Below, piece after piece: positions 6,901-48,984 of a DNA stretch of 64,000 nt. The stretch is from the NCBI GenBank assembly GCA_051362555.1, contig CM120640.1, forward strand, positions 11,408,001-11,472,000, written 5' to 3'. Each line of letters begins with the position of its first letter. Within the stretch, counting starts at the first letter, position 1. Source of the DNA: Lingula anatina. Lineage: Eukaryota > Animalia > Brachiopoda. Under the pieces are notes generated by a model. That model saw only the letters and a list, made by a program, of their open reading frames with translations, ran no database searches and was not told the origin of the DNA. A program made the translations under genes and the position numbers.

Positions 6901-7255
6901 GGTCCAAAAATTTTTCATTACTGCCGGTCCAAATGTCTGGCCATTCTGAAAAGTTTTCAGCATGTCTGAGATACTACAGGATATCATACCTGCTGAAGTT
7001 GTATCTTGGCTTTTTCAAACTCCTTCAATTTTACTTTATCTTCTGCTCTCTTCACTTTCAATGTTTCCAGTTTTTCCTCCAGGTCTTTGATATCTGCCTT
7101 GTAGTTCTCCACTTCCTGCTGTTGCTGAAGACTGCTCATCTGGCTGTCTATACTAGCTGACATCACTGATATATCAGCAGCTGAAGCCTGCAAAACACAC
7201 AAGTATAAATAAAAAATGTGTAAGATTTTGTCTCAAAGTATTCTTTAAAATAAAA

Positions 7256-7326
<71 letters not shown>

Positions 7327-12727: not shown

Positions 12728-13076
12728 CTTTGGGCTAAAAAAAAAACTTATAAAATGATTTTGGATATTAATAATATCAAGGTTTAATGAGGTTTCCTTC
12801 TGTGTGAAGGTGTTTATCAATAAAGATTCAGTGATAAAGTTATTCACACATCACTTTTACTGTTAAAATGAATAGTATAAAACATCGACTGGCCAAGGGG
12901 ATGTAGTAACAAGATGTACTGCACTTATGTTAATAAATTATAAACGGTTTAAAACAATCCGGTAAACATAGCGCAGCTAAGCCGGTTCATTCCGCTGCCA
13001 GTTTGGGATTAAAATACTATGTCCAAAGTCTAGAAATAATATACTTAATCTAATGCATGGTAACGTCGTTCATACC

Positions 13077-20653: not shown

Positions 20654-20702
<49 letters not shown>

Positions 20703-23700: not shown

Positions 23701-24260
23701 TTATTGAATTTATATTATTTGCAAATTAACAAACATGTATCCTACATAGATCATATAACTTAATACATTTGCAAAAGACATTGTGACTAATTATATAGAT
23801 CTACTGACTTATTCATTTAGAAGAAAAAATGTAATAAGTCTGAACAAGACAGAAATACGATTTCGATATAATTTAGTTACATATAACTGACATCATTCTC
23901 ACCTATACAATATGTCTAGTTATTGCATAGCATCTAAGATCTAATAAACAGATCTTAGATAGCATCAATAACTACATTTTATGTTTACAATAATTTTCAT
24001 TCTAGCTGTTAATTTATTCTACTAATTGCCAATATATGACAAAATGTACATGAATACAAAGGATATAAATATAAAAATATATAAAAAATGATGACTTGGG
24101 TTAAAGGTAAAATCCTCCCTGCCACCCTTTGCTTGTGAAGTATGTGTTCTTACCTGTCAACTGTTGCTTTTTGTAAGAAATAGCCAATATCTGACGTAAC
24201 TAGCTGAAAAAAGTCACTGTCTTCTTGGCTTAAGTAACGTCGCTCCAGGTAGATAGCCAG
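18743..24260 (-). CDS. R3HCC1L: R3H and coiled-coil domain protein (R3HCC1/R3HCC1L family), probable CUG start
   Basis: Exons 24154-24260 and 23495-23638 give an R3H domain (VLVFPPVDNYHRLLIHKATEDFQDLCSFSIGEGEDRRTTVCHQ). The large exon at about 20976-22549 has repeated QVYVPR motifs and ends EDSWDKMFDDDGECLDPKLMEE. C-terminal exons give HLIEIYDFPKEFETRDL, GFDIKWVDDTHAIGVF, LQPYKPRPETTAAAARRLVAGALG and RDAWDG. TGA at 18743-18745. Confidence 0.9.
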
Positions 24261-24273
24261 TGTGCCCCTTTTT

Positions 24274-24309
24274 TTACTGGAATGCCACAGTTTCCTTGCT
24301 GGGCTGCAT
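24274..24309 (-). promoter_or_regulatory. uORF (MQPSKETVAFQ*) in the R3HCC1-like 5' leader
   Basis: ATG at 24309-24307 and TAA at 24276-24274. Out of frame with the CUG at 24260 and ending 13 nt upstream of it, within the same exon (acceptor at 24334-24335). Confidence 0.55.
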
Positions 24310-24739: not shown

Positions 24740-25103
24740 ATACCAACCTTCTTTTGCAGATGTTTGTGTTTTACGTCAGAGATAAAGCGGCCTAGGGACT
24801 ACAGTAAAACTACCGAAATTTATTAGTTTTTCCTTATTTCCACATAGGCTGGATGTGAAGCTTTTCTGTCGTGTATGTTAAGCAGTGCAAATTCATATAA
24901 TAAAAAGAATTACGGGAGTTTATAAACGATCTAAAATACACTTGCAAGATTCTGCCTAAAGTGTTAATTACATGCATGACGTCATCAGATACTGTGTAGA
25001 CAAACAACATGTGCGAGATGGAGTTGGGAGCGACCTTCAAAGTTGATTAACGTTAGAAGAAATACTTAAAGCCACGACCACAGGATGTGACAGCTCAGTA
25101 ACG
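24740..25103. promoter_or_regulatory. Putative bidirectional promoter of the R3HCC1-like and TIR-SLOG genes, with a palindromic CRE
   Basis: Head-to-head gene starts, local CpG enrichment, ATGACGTCAT at 24976-24985 and TTACGTCA at 24772-24779. Confidence 0.55.
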
Positions 25104-28100
25104 ATGTCGAAATACGTGAAAGTAGACCAACATTTACGTGATAGTGTCAACAGTGAAGCCGGTAAGTATTTTTGACTGGAGCATACTACCTGTAGCTACT
25201 GGAGTACATGTACATTTATGGATCGAGCTTCGGCAACGTTAATTTAGAAAGAGCTGAGATTAGCATTTTTTGTGATATTTTTCCATTTTCGTCCTTGAGG
25301 AAAGAATTTATTGTACCACCAGCGTAGGCGCTGGCGGTACCCATGGTTTTAGTCCCGACCCGTATGTTCCGCCGGCTCCGCCGGCTCCTGCGGCTCCGCC
25401 GGCTCCTGCGGCTCCGCCGCCAAGTCACCGTTACCGCTTCTCCTCCTAGACGGTAAGGGCCCCTGTACCCATCTCTTGGATTTAGGTCACCTATAATCTC
25501 AACTCGTTCCACGTAAAATTTGGGCTTTGTCGGTATTGGGGTCTAGGTGTGGCACTCATTGCAATGCACCCTTGTCTAAAAATGGCAAAATTAAATGCTA
25601 ATTATCTACCCTACGGAAGGAGTTATGGGAAAAATTTCTACAGACAGCTTTCCAAAAGTCATATGTGTAGATTTCAAATATGCCCTTGGATTTGACCTTT
25701 GACCTTTATTTCAAGGTCAAACGGGCCAAAATTTTCAAAAAAATGAAATTTTTTACGAAAAAAAATTTTTTTTCCCTGTTATTCAGATACCACACAGACT
25801 TAACCAATAATATTATTGGAAAGTGTAACCCTTCGGGTCATCTTTCATCTCCGTGAATTTGGGGTCAATCGGTGCATTTTCACGGGAGTAGCAGCCATAA
25901 AGTACCGAAACTGAAAACTGTCTCTAATTCGGGAACCGTTAATGCTAGAGACCCATTCTTTTTTTGCATTTTGTAGAGCATGTAAAGCCCAACACTGGAG
26001 GTGGTCTCCATTTTTTTGTATTCCATACGGTTTTCAAGTTACGCTGTATCAAAAAGTACATATTGGTGGTGAAAGCAAAATGTGCAGTACGGTAATGGAT
26101 AATAAATTTTGAACTCTGGAAAAATAATACATAAGGCTTGGCAAAGCAGACAACTTGTGGTCAAAAATGACATTATTTCATCAAATTTGAACTTCTGGAA
26201 CTTCAGAGCACCTCCTATTTTAAGAATTTTGACCAAAATTATGTTTTCTTTATTTTAATTAATCTTTTCTGTAGGAAATTTATGGCACATTATGGTAACT
26301 CCAAAATTATAACATTTAGTCCCTTATATCTCCAAAACTGGCAGAGATAGGTCCATAGTTACTATTGAAGTTGAATAGGAAGTCATATACTGGCAATCCA
26401 AATGTGACCTTGAAATTGACCTTTGACCTACTTTTCACCATGAACTGAACTTTGCAAATTTTGCTTCCCTTTTATCTCCAAAACTGGCAGAGATATGTCC
26501 ATAGTTTCTATTGAACTTGAATAGGAAGTCATATACTGGCAATCTTAATGTGAACTTAAAATTGACCTTTGACCTACTTTTCACCATGAACTGAACTTTG
26601 CAAATTTTGCTTCCCTTTTATCTCCAAAACTGGCACAGATTGGTCCATGGTTACTGTTGAACTTGAATAGGAAGTCATATACTGGCAATCTAAATGTGAC
26701 CTTAAAATTGACCTTTGACCTATTTTTCACCATGAATTGAACTTTGCAAATTTTGCTTCCCTTATATCTCCAAAACTGGCAAAGATAGGTCCATAGTTTT
26801 TATTGAACTTGAATGGGAAGTCATATACTGGCAATCTAAATGTGACCTTAAAATTGACCTTTGACCTACTTTTCACCATGAAATGAACTTTGCAAATTTT
26901 GCTTCCCTTTTATCTCCAAAACTGGCAGAGATAGGTCCATGGTTACTGTTGAACTTGAATAGGAAGTCATATACTGGCAATCTAAATGTGACCTTAAAAT
27001 TGACCTTTGACCTACTTTTCACCATGAACTGAACTTTTCAAATTTTGCTTCCCTTTTATCTCTAAAGTTACACTGTATCAAAAAATACATATTGGTGGTG
27101 AAAGCAAAATGTGCAGTACGGTAATGGATAATAAATTTTGAACTCCAGAAAAATAATACATAAGGCTTGGCAAAGCAGACAACTTGTGGTCAAAAATGAC
27201 ATTATTTCACGAAATTTGAACACCTGGAACTTCAGAGCACCTCCCATTCCAAAAATTTTGACCAAAATGACCTTTTCTTTATTTTAATTAATTTTTTCTT
27301 TAGGAAATTTATGGCACATTATGGTAACTCCAAAATTATAACATTTAGTCCCTTTTATCTGCAAAACTGGCAGAGATAGGTCCATAGATACTATTGAACT
27401 TGAATAGAAAGTAATATACTGGCAATCTTACTGTGACCTTGAAATTGACATTTGACCTATTTTTCACCATGAACTGAACTTTGGAAATTTTGCTTCCCTT
27501 TTATCTCCAAAACTGGCAGAGATAGGTCCATAGTTACTACTGAACTTGAATAGGAAGTCAAATACTGGCAATCTTACTGTGACCTTGAAATTGACCTTTG
27601 ACCTACTTTTCACCATGAACTGAATTTTGCAAGTTTTGGTTCCCTTTTACCTCCAAAACTAGCGAGATAGGTCCATAGTTACTATTGAAATTGAATAGGA
27701 AGTCATATACTGGCAATCTAAGTGTGACCTTTAAATTGACCTTTGATCTACTTATTATCATGAACTGAACTCTGCTAATTTCTTTCTCTTTTAACTCCAA
27801 ACCTGGCAGAGATAGGTCCATAGTTACTATTGAACTTGAATAGGAAGTCATATACTGGCAATTTACTGTGACCTTGAAAATGACCTTTCACCTACCTTAC
27901 GATGAACTTAAATTTGATTGTACCATTTTTAGTTTCATATATTTTTTGCATATATTGAAAATTCTTGTTGATTGCATGTTTACAGCTTGTCAAGCAGAAG
28001 ACTGGTGGCTGTGTCCCTTATTTTGTGTATGTGGGGGTCTATACGAATGCGATTGCTCCAGCTGGTGGTACAATATTCGGAGGCGGTATTGCCTCTCTGA

Positions 28101-30490
28101 TCCTCTAGTTCTAGATTTGTTTCAACTGCATTTCAGTGATATATACTGGTATTTTTTTGTTGTAAAGTAGAAATTATCTACTAATTTTGCCGTAAATTTG
28201 AAATAATCCGGCAGGACTCGCCATACCTGTCATACGTACTTTTGGCGTCACTTGCCCGGTGCAAGTGGGTTCTGGCGTTAGGCAACCAGAATTTATGTCG
28301 TTTTTGCCTGCAAACGCAAGTCACTTTCTCATGAATCATTTGTCCGACGTACATGAAAATTCAGTGTTTTCCTTGTATAATTTCCATCATCTACCAGTAA
28401 AGAAAATCTGATCAAAACATTACTTGGGTTCTCCATGCACTTTGTCTCATCACCCATCTTGATCCTATCACTGTGCCACCTTATATGAACAACCTTTTAA
28501 TTCTACTTTATTAATATGCAGGGTGTTCTCCAGCATGCTCTGTGACCAGTTTGTCCACTGAACATCTTTTTTATCTTGGCTATTTTTTGTTTATGTCATA
28601 AATTCAGGAAATTCTTTTTGGTGGGTAAACTTACGAAAAAAGTTCTATAGGATCCTTTCAGATCCTATAGGAAATTGACCCAATTTCCTATAGGCTCCTA
28701 TAGGATCTTATAGGATCCTATAGGAATTTTTGTTAGGGAATCCTGTGGAGAGGACCTTTAACATTAAAGAAATGTAGACACTTCATTATTTGCTATTATG
28801 TGGAAACTGAGATGAGAATCTTCTGCTCTTCTACTAGTATTGCTTTGAAGCATGCTAACAGTGAAATCTTTCTATTCCCCTGTGACATATACCACTAATA
28901 ATGCAACAAAACAATATAAGCAAAAAAAAAAAAAAAAAATTGAGACTCCCTTTTATTCGATTTTTGTACCACTTTCAATTTGATAGCTTAGTTCTAAACA
29001 AATTCAGATTTATTTAGATTGTCTTCCTGACATTTCTGTGGGAAATATTGACATGTAATTAGGTACTTCTAATTGAGGGGTTTTATCATCTTTTATTGGT
29101 TTTTCATTTGAATTATAAAAGAGAAGGAGCAGGATTATTAAACAAAAATGTATGACTTGGGATTATTTTAGAATGCATAATATATAGTACTCCTTAGCAT
29201 ATTATGAAGAGTTGAAAAATATTATTTTGTTTATTGACTTGTTACGTGTAAGTATGTATGGTTTATTTGTAGTTATTTTGTTTATGATCTTAATTGATTA
29301 ATTTTGTTATTTTTATTTTTATGTTGCCTGGTGAGCCTTTTGTACAAATTATTATAACGCAGTATATAATAGTAATTTTTTTCTCTCTATATAGATTCGG
29401 TTGAAGATGATTTTTTGATTGGTGTCCATCTATGTAACAAGGAACGTTCACCAGGGACTATTCCGTATGCAGGGGCTCACACAAGGAAGGTCACAAATGC
29501 TGGACAGCCTGATGGTGTATGTCTTGGAATATTAATCACAAAGCCCTCAGAACTTACAAGCATTGCACGCCTTCGTACCCTGATATGTAACCAAATCAGC
29601 CCTTTGCCTGTGGCATTCAAGTTCCAAACAAAACAAGGGTAAGTGGTTTTCAGTAACAATATAATTGAATAGTTTTTTTAGACCTTAATATAAATAAGCA
29701 CACAAATAACATCATGCGAAGTATGTACTAGTATACATTGATGTTAATTAAGTTAAGTAGACTTTAAGTTTTGGCTGTAAATAACACTCCTAGCTGAAGC
29801 TATTATGAAGAACTATGCTCTTAAAATCTTTGTATTTGAAAATAAAAATGTGTCACAACTTGGAAAATGTGTTAAGTACCTCTGTCAGGGGAGTGGTTGA
29901 TGGAGATGGATTTAATGCTTCACTTCATAAGCAACATTTATTATAACAGTGGGAAAATTGGAGGTCTGAAGATATTGACCTCTTGTTTCTGGCCCATAAC
30001 TGTAACACAATGCATGTATATATGATGAGGTGATTACTTCGTTTTTTTTCTAATTTTCATTTAGATACTTCTCGTATCAAACATTCCAATCTGTATTTTT
30101 TGATGACGTACCCTTTATAACCAAAGAAAAACTCAATAAATTTATTTTATAGATTTGGTTGAAATCTAATTTTTAGATGGCCAGTATTGCGGAATCAAGA
30201 GGCAGATATTGCAGCAAAGAAGGTTATATCCCAAAGAAATACTGTGGTCATAGAAAGGTGCTTTGGTAGGTAATGAATGAAATATGAAAACTTATCCCCC
30301 CTTCCCCCAGAGAGTATGGTATAATGGTATAATTTGATCTATTTTACCAATAATGGATGGCAATCATTTTGTAGCCTTGGAATGATCACTTTTCTTTTTT
30401 TATGATTTTACAGAAAGACTATCACTATAAGTCAAGCTTTGATATGTCAAAGTACAAAATTATATTTAAATTAGATTTCTAGATGGCCAA

Positions 30491-30556
<66 letters not shown>

Positions 30557-33500
30557 CCAAGCCAAGGATAGGTATACAGATGTTAAATGGCTACTCATTA
30601 GGATTTGTATTTATTGATTTAAAGAGCAGCCTAAGATGTTTGAGGCTTGAAATGTCATCACAGGTAATTTTTCTCCTGATATTTTGCATAAGTTCACATA
30701 CCTGGCAATGCTATGTGCTAAAACAATTACTAGTAAAAACTTGTGTTTTGAGTCAGTTGTACAGGTGTCAAAAAGTTTTGTATTTTTTCAATTGATTTTT
30801 AGTTGAAAAAGGCTCTAGACTACAACTTTTTAAAGTACAGATGCATATTGACAGTAAACCAGTTTTCATGTGATGATCATTTGGTGTATGGTTTGTAAAT
30901 AATTATTTTTTTTCACTAGATGGAAGGTTTTCAAAACATCCAGTTTTTAGATGGGAATGGCTGGCCAATTACTCTACAGCAGGAAAACCAGCTAAATGTG
31001 CTTGATATTCTTACTGATTCTCATATCACTGTCCATCAGCAGAGATCCCTGGAATCGATGCTTAGTAATTGTTCAGAGGAGAGCAGTTCATACCAGTACT
31101 TGCTTGATGTCCCCTTAAAAAAGAAAAAGAAAGGGTAAGTCCATGTATGTGTTGGTTTATACTGTTGTTATGTACAGCCTTTTACATATACATATGGGAT
31201 GAATGTCCTAAACTTATATAATTTTGTACGTTTAATTCAAGCGTGGGCTCGAAATAGGACATTACGTTTTAGACTTACTTAGTGGATAACGCAATCCAAA
31301 GATTCCATGGTTTGTGTCAGATTTCGGTGAGGTTGCACAAAGAAAACCCAAGTCCACATAATGACCAGTTAAATGGTTTATTGGTTGACGCTCTCCAACT
31401 ACATCATCTACGTCAAGTCTCCAACTTCTAAGCCGTCTCCCATGGTTCTGTCGAGCGGTCTCTTTCGAGTCTCTCTCCGATATTAATTCTGAACGTCTTT
31501 TATGCATATTTCTTATCAAAGGTGGATTCTGTGCTGCATTATTTGGCGGTGTTCACTGATTTTAATTACGCAAATTGCACACAGCCACTTACGTTGCATA
31601 ATTACAGGTAAGGCCATAAAACGAGTCGAGTGCACAAGCAAGCGACTCCAATCAAATTAATTAACAAGTCTGGAGATAATATTTGTGAACTGAACACCGT
31701 GCATCCATCCCATATTTGAAAACACTTTGAAGTGAGTATATGTGTGTTTACATGCATGTGCATGCATGGGTTTGTGCATTCATGTGTGTTTGAGGATGAG
31801 AAACGAAACTCTTGCTCAGTTTATCTATAGTTGGTTTTTGTGTGATGCCATATGCAGCAACTTTAACTGAACCCAGCTGGCTGACAAAATGGGGGGCTGG
31901 GCGGGCCAGGTGCCAAGAATAATATGCAGTCATATGAAAAATCTTGAGTTCAAATTCCACCAATATTTCATTGAACATTTTAGAGCCCTACAGATGTTCC
32001 TTTACGTATTGATCCTTTAGGTATTGGTTCTTATTTACCTGCTCTTATAAATTATTGTTCTAAAAGCAAATTTTGGCTATGCTGCTCTGAATTAGCTGCG
32101 TATTTAATCATTTGCTACTTAGTTTTCCCAATTTATGCAGATAAATGTGCAAACCATCTGTATGAAAAAAATGATTAAATTTCTAATAATAAGTTAGGTA
32201 TAACCTCTAGGATGTACCCTAGGTTCTAGATTCCGGTATTGCCAGCTCGATCTTGATTTCATATATAACCCATAGTAGCAATACTAGTAAAAGCGACTCC
32301 ACCACAAGGTATATTTAGCAAGCTAGCTTTTACGTTGCTCTGACACTCAGGGTACTAGGATGTGAACTCCTAGGACATTCAAATACATAGAAAGGGTCAC
32401 TAAAATCAGGGTATTCAGAAGATTAACAACTGGTCTATATTTTATGGGCATATATATATATATTTTTGGGCTGAAAAAAGTTTAAAAAAAACATATGTAC
32501 ATATTATTTTCTGGCCCGTAGCCAGCAATTTCAAAAGGGGGTTCTTTTTCTGAAAAAGTGGACCTTTTACCATGAAACCTTCATGTACCTAGATAAAATT
32601 TTACCCAGAAGGGACCTTTTCTCCGCAAAGGGGGGGTTCTTTCGAACATTTTTGACATTTGAAAAGAGACAAAGGGTAAGGTCTCATCAACGTATTCAAC
32701 ATTATTTTGGTTTGGGAATTCACCCCCATTGAACTTTATACTGACATAAGCATGTGCATGTATAAATTTATCTGTGTATCACATCCATTTTGTTTGTATA
32801 TTTTTCTATGAAGATTGTAAGAAGAGGGTTTTCTGAAAAGTAAGAAATTTATAGTGTTTGCAGTGAAGCCCATCATCTATTGTTGTCCAGAAAAAGCTTG
32901 ATACACAATATTTGAACAATCAGTATATACTAGTATAGCACAAGCACCCAAATCCAAATGCAGCATTCTCAGTGCATACGCCTCAAGTTAGACTTGTAAA
33001 CTGTACTGTAAATTGAAACTTCATAGTATTTACATAATAAAGTAACTAGTAGCACCTGTTATTTTTACATTATATTGGGTGAAAATTTCTGAATCCTATA
33101 ATAGCCTCAGAACCTAAGGCAAACTGTGAGCTAGAGCTAACTGAATGGGTTATGATAAATCACTTTGAAGCTGGAGCGGAAACATTGAGATCATGAATCG
33201 GTTTTTACAAATGATTGAGTATCACATTAAATGCTTAAAATACCATGATAATTCTGCTTCAAGCAATTGAATAGTTTGCAGGTCATTATGTTCCAGGAAC
33301 CTCAGGGCAATATTCTGGATTAATTTTATATCAGGGAACACTTTATTACTGCTTATTCTGAAAGCATACATACTCACCTTTTTCAAAAGAGTTTTGAGGT
33401 CAGGACGGGTGCTTTTTTGATCATTTAAAATAATTTCATCAATGTTTTGCTAATTTTGTTTTTCTAAAATGATATAACAGTTAGATTTCTTTATTTTTCA

Positions 33501-34141
33501 CTTATTCATTCATTTTCATTGGAAATAATGATGTTTTCACATTTCATATTTTCACACTGTTTTTAGACAAAAGATGACAAACCAGTTGACCTATCAGAAC
33601 AGCAAAGATGAAGCTCGTCGCGTCTGTGATATCGACCACATGGATGGAAATGCATCTGTAGCATCCAAACAGGTCCTAATAAGTTATGTGCGTGCTGAGG
33701 CTGCACAGCATGCACTACAGCTGAAGGCTGAACTTACAAAGTTTGACTATAGTGTATTTTTGGTAAGATTTTGAGAACACACCAAGCTTGATAACATATA
33801 CAAATCTAATTAAACCATCATTTCATTTATTAAGTGTTATTTTTTCCTGAAGTTAAACTTTTTTCTTTGATTTTGGCATTATATGAGACTGAGTTTGCCA
33901 AAATATTGATTACGTAGTATAGTTTGTATTTACAAAAATGGAAGCTCACAAAAATAAATAGTAAAAACTGAAATCTAAGATGCAGAGAAAAGCAAATTGA
34001 TTATTGTATGTGCCCACTAAATTTCATTTCACATTCATTTTATAGTTGATGTTATTTGAATGTCAGGAAATAAATTTCCTGCCATTTAAAATTTCCTCGC
34101 AGTTCCTGATTAAACTATCGTTTATTTAAACCTCCAGTTCA

Positions 34142-34180
<39 letters not shown>

Positions 34181-37100
34181 GTTTCTTGCTCTATTTCTCG
34201 TTTTCAGGATGTTCATGAAATAAAGTTTGGAGTGGATTGGCAGGACTCCCTAAATGATGCTGTCAGTAATTGTGAGGTCTTTATCCCACTTATTACACCT
34301 AGGTATGGGGAGACCCAGTGGACTAACAGAGAGGTAAGAATATCTTTAAAGGCTTTTGGCCAATTAAATGACACAGAATAATCAATAAAATTGATTTAGC
34401 ATTTGCATTGCTTTTTCTTTGATGTCCAATGTCAAAATCACTGTATTAGTTCATTCAAAATAATTAATCCAATTATGTTTTTCAGAAAAAAATGAATTTT
34501 TGTTATGTACATGATTCATCACAAAAAAGAAAAAAATAGTTTGTGACCTCATTCTTTTGAAAACATTTAATGAAGTTTGAATGTTTAAAACATTGTGTTT
34601 CATGTGATTTTAAGCTTATTGTTTTTTTTATACCATATTTTTACCCAAACATATTGAAAATTAGTTCTTGTTGCAAGATTTGTGTAATGGTCAATCCTAT
34701 ATATAGTCCAAGAAATTGGTGCAGAAAAATGGGTGAATTGTGCGTTTTTTACCTACAAGCATGAAATTTGCCACAGTTGTAGATAATGGAATTCTAAGCT
34801 TTTTTGGATATATGGGCATGTCTGAAAATTCCAGTATGGCCGCCAAATCCAATATGGCCGCCACAAATACTCTTTTAAATTAAAACATCTAATATATAGT
34901 CCTAAAATGGTTTAAAATATCATTTTATAGCTGGAAAATATCATGCTATGAATGAATTATCAATATCCGCTTCTACAGGTGTTTGAATTCCAAAATGGCC
35001 TCCAAAAGTAAAATAAGCAGTTTACTTACGCAAAATATGCAGCAGTTTTGTAAAATCATCAAGCACTTACAATTACAAGCATAAAAATTGGCACAGTTAT
35101 GTAGAACATGATTCTAAGCAACTTTGGATATAGGGGCATGTCTGAAAATTCCAATATGGCAGCCAATTTCAATATTGCCCCCAAAATACCCTTTCAAGGT
35201 GAAAGTTATTTGTATAGTCTTTTATAAAAATATCATTTAATGGTAAGAAAATACCATTGTATGTATGAAGTATCAGTATTTGCCACTTAAGGTTTTAAAA
35301 TTCCAAAATGGCCTCCAAAAGTCAGCAGACCACAACTATTGGATTGTAATCACTCGTGAATAGGCATGTGGGCATTGCAAACTACCTGTATAATCAGCAT
35401 ATTCCTACCTGTGCAGGAGCAATTCTACAGAGTTTTTAAAAAACCATCAAGCATGATACATTTATTATGTACTGAAAACAGTCCTTCTTTTGATAAACCA
35501 ACATAAGTACTTTGACTTTTTGCTCTGGATTCTTATTTAGATCAATTCCCAGTTAGCAATCTTCTTATATGGCACTCATGAGTGACTCCCCCTTTCTAAG
35601 AAAAAAAGTATCGTGCAAAATTCATAAAATGTGAAAGAAACACCAGAATAACTTAGCCTTAAAGAGGCAAATATAAAAAACTTGGGGTGTACCAATTTTG
35701 TCTGTTGGTTATGATTCTTCAGCTAGATCAGTGCATGGCGCTTCATCAAATGCTCATAAATATAACAAAAATGACAGCTAATCAAACATACAGGTCTCAC
35801 AATTTGGTGTTTTTCATTGGTAAATCACTAAAAGTGGGGCACATTTGCACTTGATAATGATATGATGTTATCTTGTGCTTCAAAAGTAAATTAGAAAAGC
35901 TTCTTATTTAAAAAAATTGGCTTTAGTACATTCGCAGTAATGGCTACCGAGAATTTAGTGAAAATTTATGAGCAAAGAAATACCTGTACCCCAAACAGAG
36001 GGCAGGTGTTGATACGTGCTGTATCCTAGAGTTGCATTGCAGGCTTCACACTTCGTGCACTAAAAATGAAGCACTGATAGGCGTCAAACTTTGGTTTTCA
36101 TTTGATCATTTGGCAACTTGTTTAGTTACAAACTTATACTTTTAAAAAAACTGAACATGAAAATAAAAGAATTAAAATCCTCCAGACATTTAATACATAC
36201 AAAACTTCAAAAAAACGGTGTATTCTGAGGATTACACCAAGAAATTAGTGCAATATGGACTTTGAAAGGTAAAAATTCATGATATTTCCGGCATCATTGT
36301 CTCTGTGGGACAATCCAGAATGAAGCCATGAGGAGTATTCACTTACCCAGCTAACAAAATCTACCAGGTAGCTCCTAACACATCTGTTTGTAGTTATGTG
36401 TGCAGTTGCTAACTGTGGTGAGGGGAGTCAGAAGCATTGGAAGACTGGTCCTATAAGGGTTCACACTAGTAACCTACATCTACTAATATGCCCTTCCACA
36501 CTTTCATGTTCCTATGGACCGTTATGCATGTAAACTGAGTCAGAAGCATTGGAAGACTGGTCCTATAAGGGTTCACACTAGTAACCTACATCTACTACTA
36601 TGCCCTACCACACTTTCATATTCTTATTGACCCTCATGCATGTAAACTGATGCTTTCTGGTGTTAAAAACGACCAATGCCTCTTGGTATTTTGTTGGGGA
36701 AAGTGGATTACATGTAGAAGCTATAGCTTTAAGGAAATACTGGGAAAGCTGAGGGAAACACAACTACTAGGCACACATTAATGAATGAAAATTATTTAAC
36801 CAAATAAGTAGAAATTTCGGTGTAGCTAGCTGGTATCCTCTGTTGGGATATTGTCTATTTACTAAAGTAAAAGGTTGACCGCCCATAAAATGTGCAACAC
36901 TTACTTGATAAAATAACTTTCGTTAATTTGAAACTTATTTGTGAAAATACCTTGACATTTTCATATCCTTGACATTTATAGAATTGCTGCATGTGGTGTC
37001 ACAACTAGACCAAAAGGAGTCCTGTTCCATTTTTTTATGGTCATTTGGGTCTAAATGTAACTAAAGGAGTGAAAAACCAAAAAAGAGTAAAGACTGTTGT

Positions 37101-40100
37101 CAGTCAGATTATATAGTAGTCTTTTTTACTTTAAAAGGGTTTTAGTGGCCATATTAGAATATTCAGACATGTCCCTATATAAAAAAATTGCTTAGAATCC
37201 TGTTCTGTACAATTGAGCCAATTTTCATGCTTGTAGTTTTAAGTGCATGATGAATTCACCATACTGCTGCTGTGAGTGGCCTGTTTTTCTTATTTTTGGA
37301 GGCCATTTTGGATTTCTATACACTTAAAGAATCAAATATTGATACTTCATGCATATCATAGTCTTGTCTAACCATAAAATGTTATCTTAAGTTATTATAG
37401 GATTATATATACTTGAAGTTTTAATTTGAACGGGTATTTGTGTTGGCTATATTGGATTTGGGGACCATATATTGAAATTTTTAGACATGCTCATACATCC
37501 AAAAGTGCTTAGAATCCTGTTTTACAACTGTACCAAATGCCATGCTTGTAGTTTTTGATGAATTAACCACTCTGCTGGATATCTTGGATTAGTAGAGTGC
37601 TTTTTACTATTGTCGGCCATTTTGGATTTAATACACCTAAAAAAGCAAATATTGATTCTAAATTCATACCGTGGTGTTTTTTAATCTTTGTATGATATTT
37701 ACGCCCTTAAAAGAACATATACTTGAAGTTTTAATTAGAAGTCGTATTTTTGGAGGCCATCTTGGATTTGAAGGCAATTTTTAAATTTTCGGATATGCCT
37801 ATACATCCAAACTTGCTCAGAATTTCATTTTCCACAAACCTGCCAAATTTTATGCTTGTAGATTTAAGTGTTTGATGAATTCCCCATTCAAATGGATATC
37901 TTAAATAAATGGTCTGCTTTTTTACTTTTGGCGGCCATTTTGGATTTAATACACCTGAAGGATTCATACCATGGTGTTTCTAACCTTTATATGATATTTT
38001 AAGTCATTAGAAGACTATGTACTTGAAGTTTTAATTTGAAAAGGTATTTTGGTGGCCATATTGGATTTGACGGCCATTTTGGAATTTTCAGACATGCTCA
38101 TATATCCAAATTTGCTTAGAATTTCATTGTCCATAAGTGTGCCAAATTTCATGCTTGTAGGTAAAAAATGCACAATTTTTCACCAATTTCCTGGACTAAT
38201 AGCATAAATGTTGACAGTATGTAGTTATATTTATATTATGTACAAGAGAAGTTCTTTGCACAGTAAATGCTTCATATTAAGCATATGCATGAGTTAATGT
38301 TGATGAGGTACTTTGATTTCATCAGTTTCAGCTTATCTTTTCTGTCTCTACATTATTTAAGGTGAAGCTTGCAGATGTTTTGGGTAAACTGATAATACCT
38401 GTGTCTTTTCTGGATATGTGGCCTCCCAAGTGCCTTGCCATACAGTTTGCCTCTACACAGTTCATTTCTTGGAAACCAAAGGATATTATAGAAAAGGGTA
38501 TGTTCATGAAACATATTCCTTGAGTACTGGTAGATGATAATCAATGCTCTTCTGATAAGTTCCCAAAATAGCATTCCTGTAACTAAACTTTGAATTGATG
38601 TTTAAGACTCATTATGGTAATAAGTTTCAAAATAACATTTAGAGTTCCATTACATTATGTTACTCTGCTGGGTTAAAAAAAGGCGACGATTAAGTAAGAC
38701 AAAATAATAAAAAAATATAAAAAATATATATATATATAAAAAATTAGTAGTCTTATTATGTTAACGTTTTATTTATTTAAAGCAAGATCCAGTATTCCCT
38801 GTTTGTTAAAAGCTAAAGCTATTTTTAGAATTAAGGAGTGGAGAACTACCAGAGAATGTGTATAACATCAACATATGGGATGAGGACTATGTCAAAAAGG
38901 CTGCCTCTGACATTGGAGAGTTGATAGAAAACTATATGAACAAGCAAGGAGATGCAGTAGATGGACCTGGAATTAAGAAGGTATGGCTTTGAAAAGTAAA
39001 GAAAAATTTAAAACTTGAAAGTATAATGAAATTATAATGCATTATAAGGGAGTGTAATGAGGTGCCACAGTCTTTAATTATGGTTTTTAGAAAAGAAATG
39101 TTTCAAGAGAATTTCAAAATAATGCATAACTCTTTAAATTAAAATTGTGTGAATCCTAATTTTGTAAGATTAATTTCTTAATTTTAGGCAACTCCTACAA
39201 CTCTGAAGAGCTACCCGTCCAAGCTTCCAAACTTGAATCTTGACTTGAGCCTGGTGAATGCTCCTCGTGAAGGCAAACCACTCGTTGTAATTTGTGTACA
39301 CCCAGAACAGATAACATTTGTAAGTTGTGTTTGATTTTCTAGGCTTTTTTTGTCAATATATTTTTGATTATGAGCACCTGTAAAGTATTCTTTTAGGATT
39401 TTATTGTTGAATAGACCAATTCAGTTATGGAACTGTCCCTAACAAATTTTCGGTCTATGTTATAAGTGTACTACCCATTTTTTAAACTTATATGATGATA
39501 TAATATAAGAATTAACTTGTACTAGTTATGCACCAACAAAATGTCAAAACAAATTTGAAAACATTTTTCTACATAATGACTCGCACTCAGTAAGACTTGT
39601 ATGCTATAAGTTATTACCATAGCAATGAATTTCTCATTATCACTACATGCAGTAAGTTGGGAATACTTTTTTGTATTAGCACACAATTCTCTCCTTTCAG
39701 ATGTATATTTGACACAATGACACATGAAATGTAGAATACATCTGTCATACTTTAGGCTAAATGATTGATGTTGCTAATACTTAATGACATAGATTTGTGT
39801 ATGTTTTTGTTTAGGGAAACTATTTAAAAGGTCTACTTTTAAGTGAAGGCTATGAAGCTTGGTGCTCTTTTGAAGTGTTGGAGGAAGTAGGCTGCACAAG
39901 TCTTACTGAAGTTGGAACCATTTCTTCTCTCAGTACAGATGGAGCAGACATTTGCAATGTAGAAGGTATCATTTTGTGTTTGATTGCTGGAATAGACAGC
40001 AGTTCCATGTTGCAGAAAAAGAATTTTTTAACATCAGTAGTTCTTGTAAATTTGATTTAAATTAAGATCTGATATTTTTATAACATAAAGAAAGATTAAT

Positions 40101-43100
40101 TCCATTAAGTGTGTTATTTTCATGTCCTGCAGAAAACATGAAGAATTTATAATCTTATAGAATGTGTATTTGTAATGGCAGTATTTTTGTTGTATAGGGT
40201 ATTTATTAAATTTTGATATGAGCCATCAATTTTTTCAGGCGAGCTGTCTGAGTCTGTTTCTCAATTTAATAGCTCTTATACTCCAAAAAGCATGGAAAAA
40301 AGAGTACAATTTCAAGGCAAAGCTGATGAAGCAGGAGTTGTCATTTTTGTATTGTCAAAAGCCTTCTCACAGTCTAAGATGTGCCAGCAACAGGTGATGA
40401 TAACACAAATTTGGGGAAGCATTGTTTTATCTGAATCTTACCTTTAATTGTAATATTACTTATCTTGGATCATAACCAAACAATCAATATATTGAACATA
40501 CTGAACATACTTGATGCACTATAAATTGTTTGATAACCCATTTTGTTCTAAGAATAACCATCTATGTTTTTGATATAGGTGTACTATTGTGAGCATCGCA
40601 AGAGATTCATTCCATTGAAGTATGAAGATTTTGCCATGCCGTACTGGATGAGCATGCTCATTGGAACTAGTACTTTTCTGGTATGTATTCTGAGCACATA
40701 ATGCATAAGTAAATTATATTTACATAATGTTTGTCTTCACTTTATTATCATAAGATGTAGAAAATGTGCAATAGTTGTCAAGAAAGATGCACTTTTTCTT
40801 ACATTTGTTTTACTGCTAATTTGTCTTACGAAAAACTGTAAAAAAATTGACAAAATTACTTTTTATATTCTATATAGATGTTGACATTCACTTACGTGTC
40901 TTGTCACCCCAATCTTTCAGTTTCTGCAATATCCATTTGTAAAGGTAAAGTGCATTATTGCCTTAAGCTGTGAAAAGGGCTATTATGCCTCTGCCATCAT
41001 AACCATTACTTGTTTTTTTATGGGCATGCATAAGGAAGTATTGAATTTCTAGTGCTAATTTCTAGGTATTCTTGAGCTGTTTTATTGCACAAATGATTAT
41101 GCCTCAGCCATTTGGCTGTGCATCACTGCTTGCATGTGTTAAAGGCCCAAAGAGCAATACACTGTATATGCCTTTTAAAATGCATCAGTTTCTATTGTGT
41201 ATTTGAAAACTTCAAGACAAGTTTTTATTGAACAGTTCCAACTGATAGCCCAAGTAGGAGGGCATTCTTTAATAATGACTGGTTGTGTTTCATTTCATTT
41301 TCCAGGAAAATATGTCACTACCTAAACATGCAAGTACAAGTTTTTTAAAGCAACCTTATCATTTTTATTTTTATTTCATATTTATTTGATTCTTTATGTG
41401 AAATTAAGTCAGTGCAAAGATTATCTAGAATGGTTGACTACAAATGTAAATTGGACAATCTATTTTAAACCATCTTTATAAAGTTTCATTGCTTTTCAGT
41501 ATTGTATGAAGGATTGGTTTGAGATTACACCCATACTTTTTGTAATGGCAATTTTGTCACTAGGAGCTGATGTTATTTTCAGTGCTATGCTGTCCTTGTT
41601 TTCTTGCTATTTATTTTAACAGCTGCTAAATTTACTTTGTTTTGAAGCTTCTTTAATGTTAAAATGCATTTGCTTTTGTTTTTATTTAGTTTGGGGTTAG
41701 TTTAGCTTAAAAACAAAAGGGCTCTAATGTTATTCCATGTCCAAAAAAAAAAAAAAACGTTCATTTTGAAAACAGAATATGTTCTTGGTGTTTGATATGA
41801 TGGCAATTAAAAAAAACAAATATTTGAAATATATTGAACACTTGTAGTATGCACAGGATACTTGTTCTATTGTATCATGAAACATTGATGTATAACATCT
41901 GATCATTAAAACTTTGTTATTGCCTGTGGCACATTCTAGTTTATAAATAGAAACAAAATACTTGTGTAGATGCAGTAACAACAAGTTGAATTCTTTAATT
42001 TGACAGGATTCACAGAGAGAGTGTTTTGAGAAGTCTGTCATCTCCCAAGTGAACAGCTGCTTGTTTCCAAAGTCAGGCAACCCATCTCCAACAGAAATGC
42101 ATGACAAACAGTTGTCAAAAGAAGTGAGTATATTAATATTTTTGTTGAAAAATATATGTATAATAAAAGATTTTATAATAAAAATATCTGCCTTAGTTTT
42201 AAAATGACTTAAATTTTTATTTGAATCTTTAATTCATTTAAACTGTTGCTGACAAGGTATATCTGCATCTAATGTACATAAGTGCCTTTTCGTGGGCACA
42301 ATTTTGCATTTTTATCCAGTGAGCAGTTTGTCTCTATTTTTAGGTTAGTTCACTTACAGAAAGTTTACCAAAGCATGGAAGTGTCTATATAGCAGGAGGA
42401 ACACACTTTTACCATAAGGATTCAGAGGCCATATGCAAGTAAGTTCTAATTAATTTAAAATGTGTCAAGTTGGGGCCAAGAGATGTGATGAATATAACCA
42501 ATATTTAATTCTGAAATGAAATAAACATTTTAAAATATGCAGTAATTAATTTCTGTATGCATTTGGCAGGTTTCAAAAAACTCTAATTACTTTTAAATAC
42601 ATTCACTAAATGTGTCAGTATGTATTCTGATCATGGTTTCTGTCTGCACTGTCACTGTTTGTAATGCCATCAGTCTCTAAAACTACCAAACTATATTTTA
42701 CTTAAAATTTGGTGTCTATATATTCGCTAGCTTTGCTGTTTAGCTTCATGACCATCATACACTTTGACTAAAGCTGGGTTTTTAAAACTGATTTAGGTCA
42801 GTTGGAAAACATCTTGCTCGCAACCCAGATGTAACAGTTGTAACTGGGGGATTCTTTGGGATTGGCGAAACTGTTGCACAAAGCTTTGAAGATGAACGTA
42901 AAGCTGTCAATGGGAAATCAGGAGTAGTACATGTTCTTCCTTTTCAGGATAAAGATGTAAGTGTGTTCTTTTTCCTGTATGACTTCACTGTGATTTAGAT
43001 TGGTATTATCTTGAATGAATTTGCATTTAACTGTGTGATCAATGGCATTGTCTGCTCAACCATTTGTCATGGCACAGGCAACCTCTGACCCTTGTCTCTT

Positions 43101-44899
43101 TTTCATGTAACTGACGTTGTTGGAATATTCTTCTAACACTGACTTTGATTACAATCATTTTAATGATTTATAAGGTGTTCTACTCTATGGATATGAAAAG
43201 GGGCGAAGAAATGGTATCATGTTTTTCAGATATAGGGTGTGAAAAACTACAGAAATAATATTGAAATGAGTTATTAGAAAATATATTTGCATTGCTTTAA
43301 ACTGTACTGTCTAGAAACATGTGTAAACCTCCACATTTCAGGACCACAGCACCAGAGGAAGGCAGAGAGCAGACAAAACATTTCAGCCTCCCCCATTTGG
43401 AAAGAGTGTGTTTGTTGGGAATAGTATAAGAGATAGGGAAATCATTGTGGCAAGAGCAATTGATATTTGTATTTTGATAGAAGGTATGTATTAATTACAT
43501 GTAAAGATGCATTTTGATGCCTGCTTTTTTTTCTTTTAAAATTTTTAGATAAGGTTAAGCATTTATCCATAGTATTAGCTTTATATGTCTTTCAAAAACT
43601 AAATTTATCGTTTGCATCATTTTAGAAGTATATATTATAAGTTCTCCCTTTACCTATAGGTGGCCCTGGTGCAGCCCATGAGGCAGAAGAGTTTGCATGG
43701 AATGATCACATAGTTGTACCAGTTAAGGTTACTGGAGGTGCAGCAGGAGGAAAATTCAATGTGCCACAGAAAATATTTAAGGTAAAAAAAGGCTACACAG
43801 GGGTTGAATGATGAGTAAAGACTTGATTTATCCCTGGATTCTTGGTAAAGCCCCTTTTACACTGGACGGCATCCTCTCTGCGTCCTGTAGTATGGCCCCG
43901 TTTGAGATTTAAAAAATAATAATACTTTACTTGCCGACAACTGGCAAGTCATTGAGCATTCATTCTGCAATGCAACCAAAGCGTTGCTTGTGCCTCCTTA
44001 CTATGACCACAGCGATGCCAGTTTCATGGCCGCACAAAGGACGCAGAAATGACACCATCCTGTGTAAAGGTAAAGGGGGCTTAACCAATTTGTTTGGTAT
44101 TAAAATAAATAAATAAAATACTGTGAAATAAATAACATTAATTTTTCATTAAACAAACACAGTTACACTTGTTTTACATTTGTCTAACTACTGCATCTTA
44201 CTACTTATAAGAAATATGTATTTTAGTATTTCATGATAATTCAGTTTTTGGTCATGGCCTTTTGTTACAGTTCCAATTGCATGCATATAATATATTTTAA
44301 AGGTTACAATTGGAAATGATATCTTAGACCCCATTTCCAGAGATTAGATCGATCTACTTTAGATCGACCTAACTCCCTGGGGGCTCACGCTAAATAGCTG
44401 TCAGCCGAGCGGACACGAAAGTTCATTACCCCCTTACAGCTTGTAGTAGGCGGGACGGACATTTAAGCCAGATTATCTGACAGTAATCTAGTGAGACTCC
44501 CCGTGGGGATAGATTGATCTAAAAGCTCTGGGAATACAGCCTTAATGGATTCAAGTTAGACCTGAATTTTGCATATGAACATTTATTAACAAACAAAAGG
44601 TAAAAAGTTGGGTGTTATTTCAGGTCCCACAGAGTGTGTCATTAGCTGACTGGTCAGTTCTGAGCAACAATTCCTCCAGCCCTGAAGAAATTGGGAAAGC
44701 AGTGGCCAGTGTGGTCAACACTTTGATATCAAGCAGGCCTGGACCTAGTCCACCCCCTGTCAAAGTTAAACCATGTAAATCCCCACTGACTCTCCCTCAA
44801 ACTAACAGCACACCTCCATCACCAACTTACACTAGGAAACGGAAGAGAAGTATTGCTACTTTGAGAATAATGGTAGACAGTGATGATAAACAATCATGA
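25104..44899 (+). CDS. Uncharacterised ~924-aa protein: two putative beta-grasp repeats, TIR (catalytic Glu), TIR (Glu->Gln), SLOG domain
   Basis: 19 GT-AG exons with consistent phases: 25104-25161, 29395-29638, 30177-30265, 30557-30663, 30920-31134, 33567-33762, 34208-34333, 38362-38497, 38829-38980, 39188-39319, 39815-39965, 40239-40393, 40579-40680, 42007-42123, 42344-42438, 42797-42956, 43342-43483, 43660-43781, 44624-44899 (2775 nt, open throughout). TIR1: QVLISYVRAEAAQHALQLKAELTKFDYSVFLDVHEIKFGVDWQDSLNDAVSNCEVFIPLITPRYGETQWTNREVKLADVLGKLIIPV. SLOG: VYIAGG...VVTGGFFGIGETVA...RDREIIVARAIDICILIEGGPGAAHE...VVPVKVTGGAAG. Confidence 0.88.
25310..28110 (+). mobile_element. HINE/DINE-1-like element, copy 2 (inverted relative to copy 1), in intron 1 of the TIR-SLOG gene
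   Basis: Begins ATTGTACCACCAGCGTAGGCGCTGGCGGTAC followed by (CCGGCTCCG)n, and ends ...GCTGGTGGTACAATATTCGGAGGCGGTATTGCCTCTCTGATCCTCTAGTT. Reverse-complement match to 9274-12040 along its length. About 9 monomers of 146 bp in two blocks. Confidence 0.8.
28630..28738. repeat. Short foldback element / MITE remnant built from CCTATAGG palindromes
   Basis: Perfect arms CCTATAGGAAATTG (28664-28677) / CAATTTCCTATAGG (28681-28694), further CTATAGG units on both sides, and imperfect termini CTTACGAAAAA / TTTTTGTTAGGG. Confidence 0.6.
30491..30553. repeat. (ATT)n microsatellite directly upstream of the exon 4 acceptor
   Basis: About 21 ATT units followed by CAG|CCAAG at 30554-30557. A similar run at 34142-34180 precedes exon 7. 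Confidence 0.92.
31196..31711. mobile_element. Non-autonomous TIR element with GGG...CCC termini and 4-bp TSD (Sola2-like)
   Basis: ATAT|GGGATGAATG ... CATCCATCCC|ATAT. The interior is richer in CpG than the flanks. The superfamily is inferred from the termini only. Confidence 0.55.
34704..38198. mobile_element. 3.5-kb foldback DNA transposon derivative with long modular inverted repeats (Academ-like)
   Basis: Termini TAGTCCAAGAAATTGGTG / CACCAATTTCCTGGACTA with a 3-bp TSD ATA. Subunits of about 300-320 bp: two in the left arm (34759, 35079) and four inverted in the right arm (37226, 37541, 37851, 38150). No intact transposase ORF. Confidence 0.75.
36425..36650. repeat. Two-copy 112-bp tandem duplication inside the foldback element
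   Basis: GAGTCAGAAGCATTGGAAGACTGGTCCTATAAGGGTTCACACTAGTAACCTACATCTACTA at 36425 and 36537. Confidence 0.9.
43849..44081. mobile_element. PIF/Harbinger (Tourist-like) MITE
   Basis: TAA|AGCCCCTTTTACACTGGA...TCTGCGTCC ... GGACGCAGA...TCCTGTGTAAAGGTAAAGGGGGCT|TAA, with a 3-bp TAA TSD. Confidence 0.75.
44327..44541. mobile_element. PIF/Harbinger-type MITE, family B copy 1
   Basis: TTA TSD (44324-44326, 44542-44544). Imperfect TIRs ...TTCCAGAGATTAGATCGATC / GATTGATCTAAAAGCTCTGGGAA. Homologous to 45610-45834. Confidence 0.8.
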
Positions 44900-45609
44900 T
44901 TGTTGCATATTGCTGTAATTGTGTTCATTAAAATATTGCTACCTAGGTTCCATGTTTGAAACATCATTCAAGACGCATGGATAAAACAGTGTGTGCAAAA
45001 ACTACAGTTCGTTTGATTTTGCCAATAAGTGCAATCATTTCAGCCATATTAGTTTTTTTTCAGCAAATCAGTGGGTATTTGTCTGAAGAATTAAATTACT
45101 TACAGCCTTTTAAAATATGATTTATTCATTTCCAATCCAAAGTGTTATATTCTTGCATGATAAACACATACTGGAAACTGAGCACTTCCTATTTTTCTTC
45201 ATTATTTACAGCCTACTTTTTTATCTTATTTTTGTGATTGTTTTAAAAATCATGCCACCAATTAACTTGAAAATATTATAAAATTTTGGAATATTTATGG
45301 AAAACAACTTATTAAAGCAAACTTACATTCATCCTTCTTTGTATATAATTATTTGTATTTTTCACTGTGAACACTGTTATAAAGTTAAACCTGCTCATTC
45401 TGAAGCATTGTTAAGTGAACACTTGTCCTGTTATCATGGGGTGTTTACTGTCAGTTAGTTTGTTATACAGAATTATAAAATCATTCAAAAGAAGTATTTT
45501 CATATAACAAATTTGTGATACCAAGTATGAAGTATGGTGACAATTTATATCAACATCTTACTTAAAGGGACAAAGCATAAGATATAAAGATATAAAGATT
45601 ATTATCTTA

Positions 45610-47403: not shown

Positions 47404-48453
<1,050 letters not shown>

Positions 48454-48984
48454 TATAATTTTAAGCCGTGTGCCCAATATAACTTCAACAGGTTTTAAAT
48501 ATAAAATTTAGCTCTTCTCCACGGACCAAACTAAGATCAGTATCTGAAATTAGGTAAGCATCAATATTGAGTCAACTAAAAAGCTTGGCAACTTTAAAAT
48601 CAGTAGGATGTGTTAATCTAAACGGACTTAAATTGTGCGATTTTTAAGTCTAAACTAAGACACACCCAATGACTGTGTAAACACAAGAGCAGTGATGCTG
48701 ATAACTTACAGTTAAGTCTAATATTATTATTAGCAAATTGAGTAAGCTGTATATTTATAGACTGTACGTTTAAAAATGACTCATAAAATCACCTACTATT
48801 GACACATTCACAGTACTGTTTCAATACATGGACGATTCAATAAATGCATGACTGGTCCAAATGCAATATGTTAACCAAGTCTTTTTCTTATTTTATAGTA
48901 GCTTAAATGCTTTAGGTGGACCCCTGTATTAGCGAACATATCACAAAAATAAAAAGTAGCAGTCAAAACTACAGATTTACTCAC

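Follow-up and report, generated by a model that had tools for sequence, protein, structure and literature searches.

Within a 64,000-nucleotide window of the Lingula anatina genome (the whole stretch analyzed here, from contig CM120640.1, with its first letter as position 1), the plus strand carries an intron-rich gene at 25104..44899 whose product joins two ubiquitin-like (Ubl) domains, two TIR domains (TIR1 and TIR2), and a SLOG domain in a single chain. The gene belongs to an old, vertically inherited animal family in which TIR1 retains the WxxxE motif of catalytic TIR domains and the corresponding motif of TIR2 is dead. The gene and its parts are as follows.

25104..44899, plus strand: whole gene, 19 coding exons and 924 residues, supported by splice sites, phases, translation, RNA reads, and colinear homologs
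25104-25161, 29395-29638, 30177-30265, 30557-30663, 30920-31134, plus strand: exons 1 to 5
33567-33762, 34208-34333, 38362-38497, 38829-38980, 39188-39319, plus strand: exons 6 to 10
39815-39965, 40239-40393, 40579-40680, 42007-42123, 42344-42438, plus strand: exons 11 to 15
42797-42956, 43342-43483, 43660-43781, 44624-44899, plus strand: exons 16 to 19
25104..25161, plus strand: putative exon 1 with the start codon, the least certain part of the gene model
29395..31036, plus strand: two tandem ubiquitin-like (beta-grasp) domains, residues ≈25-130 and 131-205, exons 2 to 5
33667..38941, plus strand: TIR1, residues ≈272-428, exons 6 to 9, from Pfam TIR_2 and a match to SARM1 in sequence and fold
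34319-34321 and 34331-34333, plus strand: Trp341 and Glu345 of the WxxxE motif, each kept in 122 of 124 homologs
39275..42078, plus strand: TIR2, residues ≈471-645, exons 10 to 14, a TIR fold with the catalytic motif absent
40391-40393, plus strand: Gln587 at the Glu position of TIR2, with no Trp, in a register set by motif and by eye
42377..44728, plus strand: SLOG domain, residues ≈672-868, exons 15 to 19, from fold match and Pfam LDcluster4/STALD
43435-43437 and 43680-43682, plus strand: SLOG pocket residues Arg777 and Glu800, placed by motif mapping

Rebuilt from the raw sequence, the spliced exons span 2775 nt, which equals 924 residues and one terminal stop, and all 18 introns are GT-AG and phase compatible, in agreement with the 19-exon, ≈924-residue gene proposed in an earlier sequence-only reading of this DNA. 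The motifs quoted in that reading are all present in the translation (ISY, FLD spanning the exon 6/7 joint, TQWTNREV, VYIAGG, VVTGGFFGIG, DICILIEGGPGAAHE, and VPVKVTGGAA), and the catalytic Glu codon, GAG, lies at 34331-34333 as given there. Exon 1 has a strong GTAAGT donor and fits in phase; at 7% identity to the homologs it is without homolog support, and its start codon is putative. We aligned four RNA runs to 29300-45600, a region that contains 17 of the junctions, junction 1-2 lying outside it. Among the joints listed, spliced reads cross at least nine of the 17, with 5 to 25 reads each: junctions 5-6 (8), 7-8 (16), 8-9 (15), 9-10 (19), 14-15 (25), 15-16 (15), 17-18 (12), 18-19 (10), and 16-17 (5, shifted by an allele difference). 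Read depth over the exons in these runs is low, and junctions 2-3, 3-4, 4-5, 6-7, and 10-11 to 13-14 have no spliced reads among the joints listed. The reads thus bear out the proposed exon chain in part, at the nine or more spliced junctions, and leave exon 1 and the TIR-to-SLOG junctions without listed reads. Because junctions 10-11 to 13-14 are not among the joints listed, the link between the TIR and SLOG exons in L. anatina itself comes from homology and not from reads. At two intronic repeats, 32020-33100 and 43990-44540, RNA reads pile up by the hundreds with loose ends; they derive from other genomic copies and not from this gene.

Dozens of independently annotated proteins can be aligned with the spliced protein from one end to the other, and TIR1 and SLOG occur together in 151 of the 162 proteins retrieved, all of at least 600 residues; of the remaining 11, six lack SLOG, four are partial, and one is unrelated. 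Furthermore, in four metagenome loci (L030-L033) the TIR-TIR-SLOG arrangement is encoded by one intronless open reading frame (ORF). In the family, TIR and SLOG therefore reside on one polypeptide. Taken singly, the exons match weakly: of 18 scanned, exon 7 matches TIR_2 (E 5.7e-6) and exon 16 matches LDcluster4 (E 0.09).

Fold comparisons were made on a model of the chiton homolog P0018, built from a 54-row alignment (predicted local distance difference test (pLDDT) 80, predicted template modeling score (pTM) 0.58), and residues were counted over the 124 homologs left after near-duplicate cluster members were removed from those covering TIR1 and SLOG. TIR1 is assigned to Pfam TIR_2 in all 54 aligned members and is 64-79% identical across 12 species from sponge to tick. 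Its closest solved sequences are the SARM1 TIR domains (E 2e-5), and the modeled fold superposes on the SARM1 TIR with a Z score of 14.0 (root-mean-square deviation (RMSD) 2.6, 127 residues aligned, 26% identity). From sponges to chelicerates, the pocket is near invariant at Ser277, Tyr278, Asp304, Trp341, and Glu345, with Ser277 and Tyr278 present in 124 of 124 sequences, and the positions counted within a WPPxCLAIQFAxTQ surface are conserved in 120-124 of the 124. The PADLOC model for ThsB also matches TIR1 in seven of seven homologs scanned (E 7e-10 to 3e-14). In work on other TIR domains, WxxxE has been linked to NAD+ cleavage and cyclization at an active site that sits between two TIRs (10.1101/2022.05.07.491051), which makes TIR1 a likely assembly-activated NADase or cyclase; judged from its motifs, we consider such activity probable.

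TIR2 presents a different picture. Its modeled fold matches the TIR domain of Hydra TRR-2 (Z 15.1, RMSD 2.7, 125 aligned), confirming the second TIR domain of the sequence-only reading, which had missed that the catalytic motif is absent. The Glu position is occupied by Gln in 106, His in 9, and Glu in only 3 of the 124 homologs, and Trp is never among the common residues at the Trp position. A YxExRK motif (Tyr590, Glu592, Arg594, and Lys595) is nonetheless kept in 120-124 of 124, and loss of the Glu alongside retention of YxExRK is what a pseudo-enzyme that keeps a binding surface would show. In both TIR domains a phase-0 intron directly follows the codon at the catalytic position (34333 after Glu345 and 40393 after Gln587). 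The matching introns hint at an internal duplication, although both codons end in AG and coincidence is plausible; the TIR1 and TIR2 profiles match each other weakly (16%). The otherwise variable linker between the two domains contains a moderately kept K/R-S/T-Y/F-x-x-x-L-P motif (39206-39232, residues 448-455), a possible phosphorylation or docking site.

The sequence-only reading had listed the two TIR domains and SLOG correctly and overlooked the two Ubl domains at the N terminus. A separate model of residues 1-186 of P0018 (pLDDT 93) has the USP7 UBL domains as its best fold match (Z 8.8, RMSD 8.5, 160 aligned), with single Ubl domains following at Z 7-8. The profiles of the two Ubl domains match each other at 98.9%, and matches to the pair in the ESM Atlas stay below 0.9.

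The C-terminal exons encode a SLOG fold, as had been predicted. The modeled domain matches TM1055 (Z 17.2), PpnN (17.1), BcThsA (17.0), the molybdenum cofactor (Moco) carrier (16.4), type II LOG (16.2), and TRPM2 (12.2), so that a protein of unknown function (TM1055), a hydrolase (PpnN), and a sensor (ThsA) are tied or nearly so at the top. At E ≤ 0.05, Pfam finds LDcluster4 in 43 and STALD in 23 of 54 members. LDcluster4 (PF18306), a broad model that also has matches in 13 of 14 control genomes, exceeds its 26.3-bit cut-off in six of 14 homologs scanned, and STALD is listed for nine of these 14 and is under its cut-off in all of them. Profile comparison gives HH probabilities of 21% for LDcluster4, 6% for STALD, and 0.3% for LD_cluster3; the ESM Atlas matches all belong to SLOG clans and, at 0.80-0.84, have the standing of leads. 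The STALD/LSDAT-type tail suggested by the sequence-only reading holds as a STALD-like resemblance in a weak alignment, whereas Pfam favors LDcluster4 and yields no LSDAT match in the 54 members.

Two residues stand out in the SLOG pocket, mapped by motif and weak profile alignments and not by superposed coordinates. Arg777 is present in 115, Glu800 in 109, and both in 101 of the 124 homologs; Glu800 is replaced by Leu in oysters and scallops, and Arg777 by Lys in seven snail-type sequences. These residues correspond to the catalytic pair Arg99/Glu122 reported for LOG (PMC4979012), and the pocket likewise contains equivalents of ThsA G289, R371, G399, and E403 in a motif alignment to one STALD protein (HH probability 6%). 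ThsA uses R371 and E403 to bind 3' cyclic ADP-ribose (3'cADPR) (10.1101/2022.05.07.491051). On these grounds we find it fairly likely that SLOG binds a nucleotide of the ADP-ribose (ADPR) type or another adenine nucleotide. In six proteins SLOG is missing with TIR1 intact (those of the clams Mercenaria, Mactra, Ruditapes, and Mya and two unnamed). These end in the same terminal motif as the SLOG-bearing mollusc proteins, which points to internal loss and not truncation. TIR1 is thus the core of the protein and SLOG an accessory.

The family proved much larger than the single unusual gene it had seemed. A search with exon 7 by itself recovers 91 proteins that are 61-95% identical to it, and a profile search retrieves 207, of which 120 are listed. 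The named matches listed come from nine phyla and include sponges, ticks, and starfish: Porifera, Placozoa, Mollusca, Annelida, Nemertea, Priapulida, Arthropoda (chelicerates only), Echinodermata, and Hemichordata. Most genomes among them have one copy, with two in Bradybaena and Candidula and three in Tachypleus. No cnidarian, lancelet, tunicate, vertebrate, insect, crustacean, nematode, or flatworm is among the named matches listed, from a search that was word-seeded and returned many unnamed entries; gene loss in these groups is likely, and the expectation that vertebrates and flies lack an orthologue agrees with the list. Members are already in public databases carrying both Pfam labels, under names such as uncharacterized, hypothetical, or TIR-containing, and the family was probably overlooked because vertebrates, flies, and nematodes offer no named match.

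A FastTree phylogeny of 69 chosen sequences mirrors the animal tree, with sponges, Trichoplax, Ambulacraria, and protostomes in turn. The L. anatina gene falls inside a 33-row protostome clade (support 96), loosely next to two nemerteans (88). Four other loci have introns exactly at both ends of exon 7. Because the tree follows animal phylogeny and intron positions are common to other loci, the family is old and vertically inherited, in agreement with the argument of the sequence-only reading against contamination or recent transfer. The full-length intronless metagenome matches looked bacterial at first; they lie on gene-poor contigs of 37-42% guanine-plus-cytosine content and group with Halichondria, one cluster of these matches containing a Halichondria RefSeq protein. 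These ORFs are single and intronless within the Halichondria clade, whereas other loci have the L. anatina intron positions, which suggests either retroposition in that sponge lineage or intron gain later elsewhere. No full-length prokaryotic or viral relative appeared in scans of GTDB (28 pattern matches, one of them with a short, TIR-only match of 36 residues), viral contigs (0 of 11 pattern matches related), or plasmids (TIR-only matches covering ≤17% of the query). An initial metagenome scan that used one protein as query returned 36 matches, none related, and exon 16 found no match in a set of 5.8 billion sequences and 45 in a full HMMER search.

In the literature, our targeted searches found no paper describing the family, which is apparently uncharacterized; the SLOG surveys of Burroughs (2015) and of Burroughs and Aravind (2020) lie outside those searches and may note the fusion. 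The accessible portion of a TIR survey (PMC7075850) does not mention SLOG. The Fig. 3 legend of a recent preprint (10.64898/2026.04.20.719644) includes SLOG among the architectures of eukaryotic TIR proteins that produce cyclic ADP-ribose (cADPR), and the species set given there includes a mollusc and an echinoderm. There are roughly even odds that its SLOG-bearing protein belongs to the present family, in which case the enzyme step would be strengthened and the novelty lowered.

Taking these features together, we favor a SARM1-like NAD+-cleaving enzyme in which SLOG is a modulating nucleotide sensor and not an obligatory Thoeris-style gate, a reading that we rate evenly balanced between right and wrong. 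In such a conserved intracellular Ubl-Ubl-TIR1-TIR2-SLOG protein, TIR1 would cut NAD+ to ADPR or a cyclic isomer once activated by head-to-tail TIR assembly, as SARM1 and AbTir are. The Ubl pair would probably serve as a protein-binding or polymerizing input that sets this assembly, TIR2 would offer a binding surface that brakes or seeds it, and SLOG would act as a nucleotide-sensing dial on TIR1, much as ARM does in SARM1, one that some lineages manage without. Since the Ubl pair, the two TIR domains, and SLOG account for everything folded in the model, leaving no other effector domain, SLOG most simply acts on TIR1, and its loss from the four named clams, together with the loss of the pocket Glu from oysters and scallops beside an intact TIR1, argues for a dial over a gate. 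The same losses speak against the core design that the sequence-only reading had put forward, a protein that makes and senses its own messenger; that the SLOG ligand is the product of TIR1 itself seems doubtful.

SARM1 (TIR-1 in Caenorhabditis elegans) is the closest known parallel, being an intracellular animal protein with a conserved WxxxE TIR domain that gives the top PDB sequence match to TIR1. It is also an NADase with a built-in nucleotide sensor, its ARM domain sensing nicotinamide mononucleotide (10.1101/2022.05.07.491051). Unlike SARM1, the L. anatina family has neither ARM nor SAM (no Pfam match in 54 members) and instead has the Ubl pair, a pseudo-TIR, and SLOG; vertebrates, insects, and nematodes keep SARM1 and provide no named family match among those listed. 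TIR-STING of Crassostrea gigas (structure 6wt7) similarly places an N-terminal TIR NADase and a C-terminal nucleotide sensor on one chain, but in the L. anatina protein the predicted sensor is SLOG, a pseudo-TIR separates it from the enzyme, and the Ubl pair comes first. Bacterial TIR-SAVED we take to be a comparable TIR-sensor fusion. TRPM2 supplies a further animal SLOG domain, its MHR1/2 region, of the LSDAT type and reported to bind ADPR (PMC13143021). The fold match to TRPM2 is weaker, however, there is no LSDAT or channel Pfam match in the 54 members, and SLOG in this family is followed by a low-confidence tail where TRPM has ankyrin-like repeats and a channel. The family would work like SARM1 or a TIR-sensor fusion, yet it belongs to neither the Thoeris systems nor SARM1.

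Several considerations weigh against the SARM1-like reading. A conserved Glu is insufficient for activity: TLR2, IL-1R9, and IL-1R10 have it and are inactive, and 12 of 61 animal TIR domains tested were active, most making cADPR (10.64898/2026.04.20.719644). The SLOG fold matches the hydrolases PpnN and LOG and the sensor ThsA alike, so that it does not separate sensing from hydrolysis, and its loss was seen within the clam proteins, the clam genomes not having been checked for a separate SLOG gene. The role suggested for the Ubl pair comes from fold, for which the best Z of 8.8 is middling. Finally, P0018 is a chiton homolog and not the L. anatina protein, and its pTM leaves the arrangement of the domains unfixed.

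A tighter, Thoeris-like coupling, which covers the model of the sequence-only reading, would make SLOG an animal receptor for TIR-made cyclic ADPR that switches on TIR1 in the same chain. The protein would then be a ligand-gated effector or amplifier, with a signal from TIR1 itself or from another protein, as 3'cADPR acts on ThsA and a cyclic dinucleotide on TIR-STING; we regard this as rather unlikely. The order of enzyme then sensor is that of SIR2-SLOG in ThsA (PMC13276650), and the tied fold match and four pocket equivalents noted above also favor it. Against it, the same weak motif alignment (HH probability 6%) reveals no K388 equivalent, and the S290 position is Ser in 56 of 124 homologs. 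Type I Thoeris (ThsB TIR with ThsA SIR2-SLOG/STALD) shares with the family a catalytic-type TIR domain, SLOG, and, by motif alignment, the pocket Arg/Glu, but the family has no SIR2 (no Pfam match in 54 members), does not reach the STALD cut-off in the 14 homologs scanned, and is encoded by one spliced animal gene in place of a prokaryotic operon with thsA and thsB as distinct genes. SLOG is moreover dispensable in clams, and across several bivalve lineages it has been lost or eroded with TIR1 intact.

The type III Thoeris systems, in which several TIRs are reported to accompany a SLOG effector, with an uncharacterized signal (10.64898/2025.12.03.692087; PMC13276650), bear on the same proposal. 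ThcB4 is the best NCBIfam match of TIR1 in all seven homologs scanned, at 58-70 bits (E 1e-16 to 1e-19) against a 220-bit cut-off. We examined six bacterial loci with ThcB4-type genes (five of seven above the cut-off and one below), and in all six an LD_cluster3 SLOG gene lies directly downstream, so that the TIR-then-SLOG gene order equals the animal domain order. The match covers the TIR domain alone, however; the family SLOG profile does not detect the adjacent LD_cluster3 SLOGs (HH probability 0.3%), and many unrelated bacterial TIRs match TIR1 about equally, at 28-36% identity. Descent from type III Thoeris is therefore a lead only. One bacterial locus (L083, 1218-6602) has a type III Thoeris-like arrangement of TIR genes, a SLOG(LD_cluster2)-patatin gene, and ThcB4-like and LD_cluster3 SLOG genes.

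It is improbable, in our estimate, that the protein is a two-step enzyme in which SLOG, as an N-glycosidase of the LOG/PpnN type, destroys or further processes the product of TIR1, giving a self-limiting signal or a new small molecule. One function proposed for SLOG domains is to cleave signals of the cADPR type (PMC9503650). PpnN is among the tied best fold matches, and LOG, PpnN, the Moco carrier, and TM1055 (LDcluster4, TIGR00725-like) share with the family a fold at Z 16-17 and the Arg/Glu pair, Arg777 and Glu800 being the LOG counterparts. That pair also binds ligand in the sensor ThsA, however, and so gives no indication of catalysis, and the LOG substrate residues Thr119 (in PGGxGTxxE), Lys100 (after the Arg), and Glu121 are replaced by Ala797, Glu778, and His799, with Ala at the Thr position in 82 and Glu at the Lys position in 103 of 124 homologs; the L. 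anatina SLOG is, in addition, fused to TIR domains. Least probable of all is a non-enzymatic scaffold whose TIRs serve as adaptors in the manner of MyD88 or MAL, with the Glu and the SLOG pocket left as structural relics. Such a scaffold would suit the conservation of a catalytically dead TIR2, the inactivity of some Glu-bearing animal TIRs, and the protein binding suggested by the Ubl pair, but would make the near-invariant TIR1 pocket hard to explain without a small-molecule substrate.

The genes around the L. anatina locus are as follows.

2276-12850, minus strand: dynactin
17131-17880, plus strand: 249-codon Gly/Arg/Tyr-rich open frame between the dynactin and R3H-like genes, no Pfam match
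≈19000-24300, minus strand: head-to-head neighbor, with an R3H-like exon near 23500-23640 and a 545-residue exon at 20922-22559
48220-48507, minus strand: MORN-repeat gene
54237-56098, plus strand: pipsqueak-helix-turn-helix (HTH) factor
59657-62861, minus strand: condensin subunit Cnd2

From its motifs, we take the head-to-head neighbor to be R3HCC1-like, its 545-residue exon having no Pfam match, and the pipsqueak-HTH factor is presumably E93-like. The only copy of the palindrome TGACGTCA in the window (24977-24984), which we take to be a cAMP response element (CRE)-type site, lies ≈120 bp upstream of the start codon, between the TIR-SLOG gene and the head-to-head neighbor on the minus strand, and the interval is possibly a shared promoter. 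Intron 1 contains, at ≈25300-28100, an element of tandem ≈146-bp units, probably a transposon, with a similar copy on the opposite strand within the dynactin gene (≈9100-12250).

An immune gene cluster was considered and set aside, the neighbors being the dynactin, MORN, pipsqueak-HTH, and condensin genes. Invertebrate immune receptors form expanding families. The slow evolution, mostly single copy, and housekeeping neighbors of this family look more like SARM1. Nothing we found points to the immune switch envisaged by the sequence-only reading, and a mainly immune role seems unlikely to us, although the worm orthologue of SARM1 is reported to act in defense (10.64898/2026.04.20.719644).

The physiological role of the widespread cADPR production by animal TIR proteins is stated to be open (10.64898/2026.04.20.719644), and a reader of such TIR signals in animals is an obvious gap. 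Here, one chain combines an enzyme-type TIR pocket with the fold by which bacteria read TIR signals, the two halves of Thoeris, making the idea testable with one soluble protein. Natural controls exist in the clam proteins that lack SLOG, the oyster and scallop proteins in which the pocket Glu is gone, and the sponge-clade protein encoded without introns. If SLOG does gate TIR1 as a receptor for TIR-made cyclic ADPR, a one-protein amplifier of the Thoeris type would have persisted in animals from a time before the divergence of sponges. It may have arisen by fusion of a bacterial gene pair in which TIR precedes SLOG, as in type III Thoeris, and it would have disappeared from the lineages to which most model organisms belong. 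On the more modest reading, the family would give animals a second NAD+ enzyme of the SARM1 kind.

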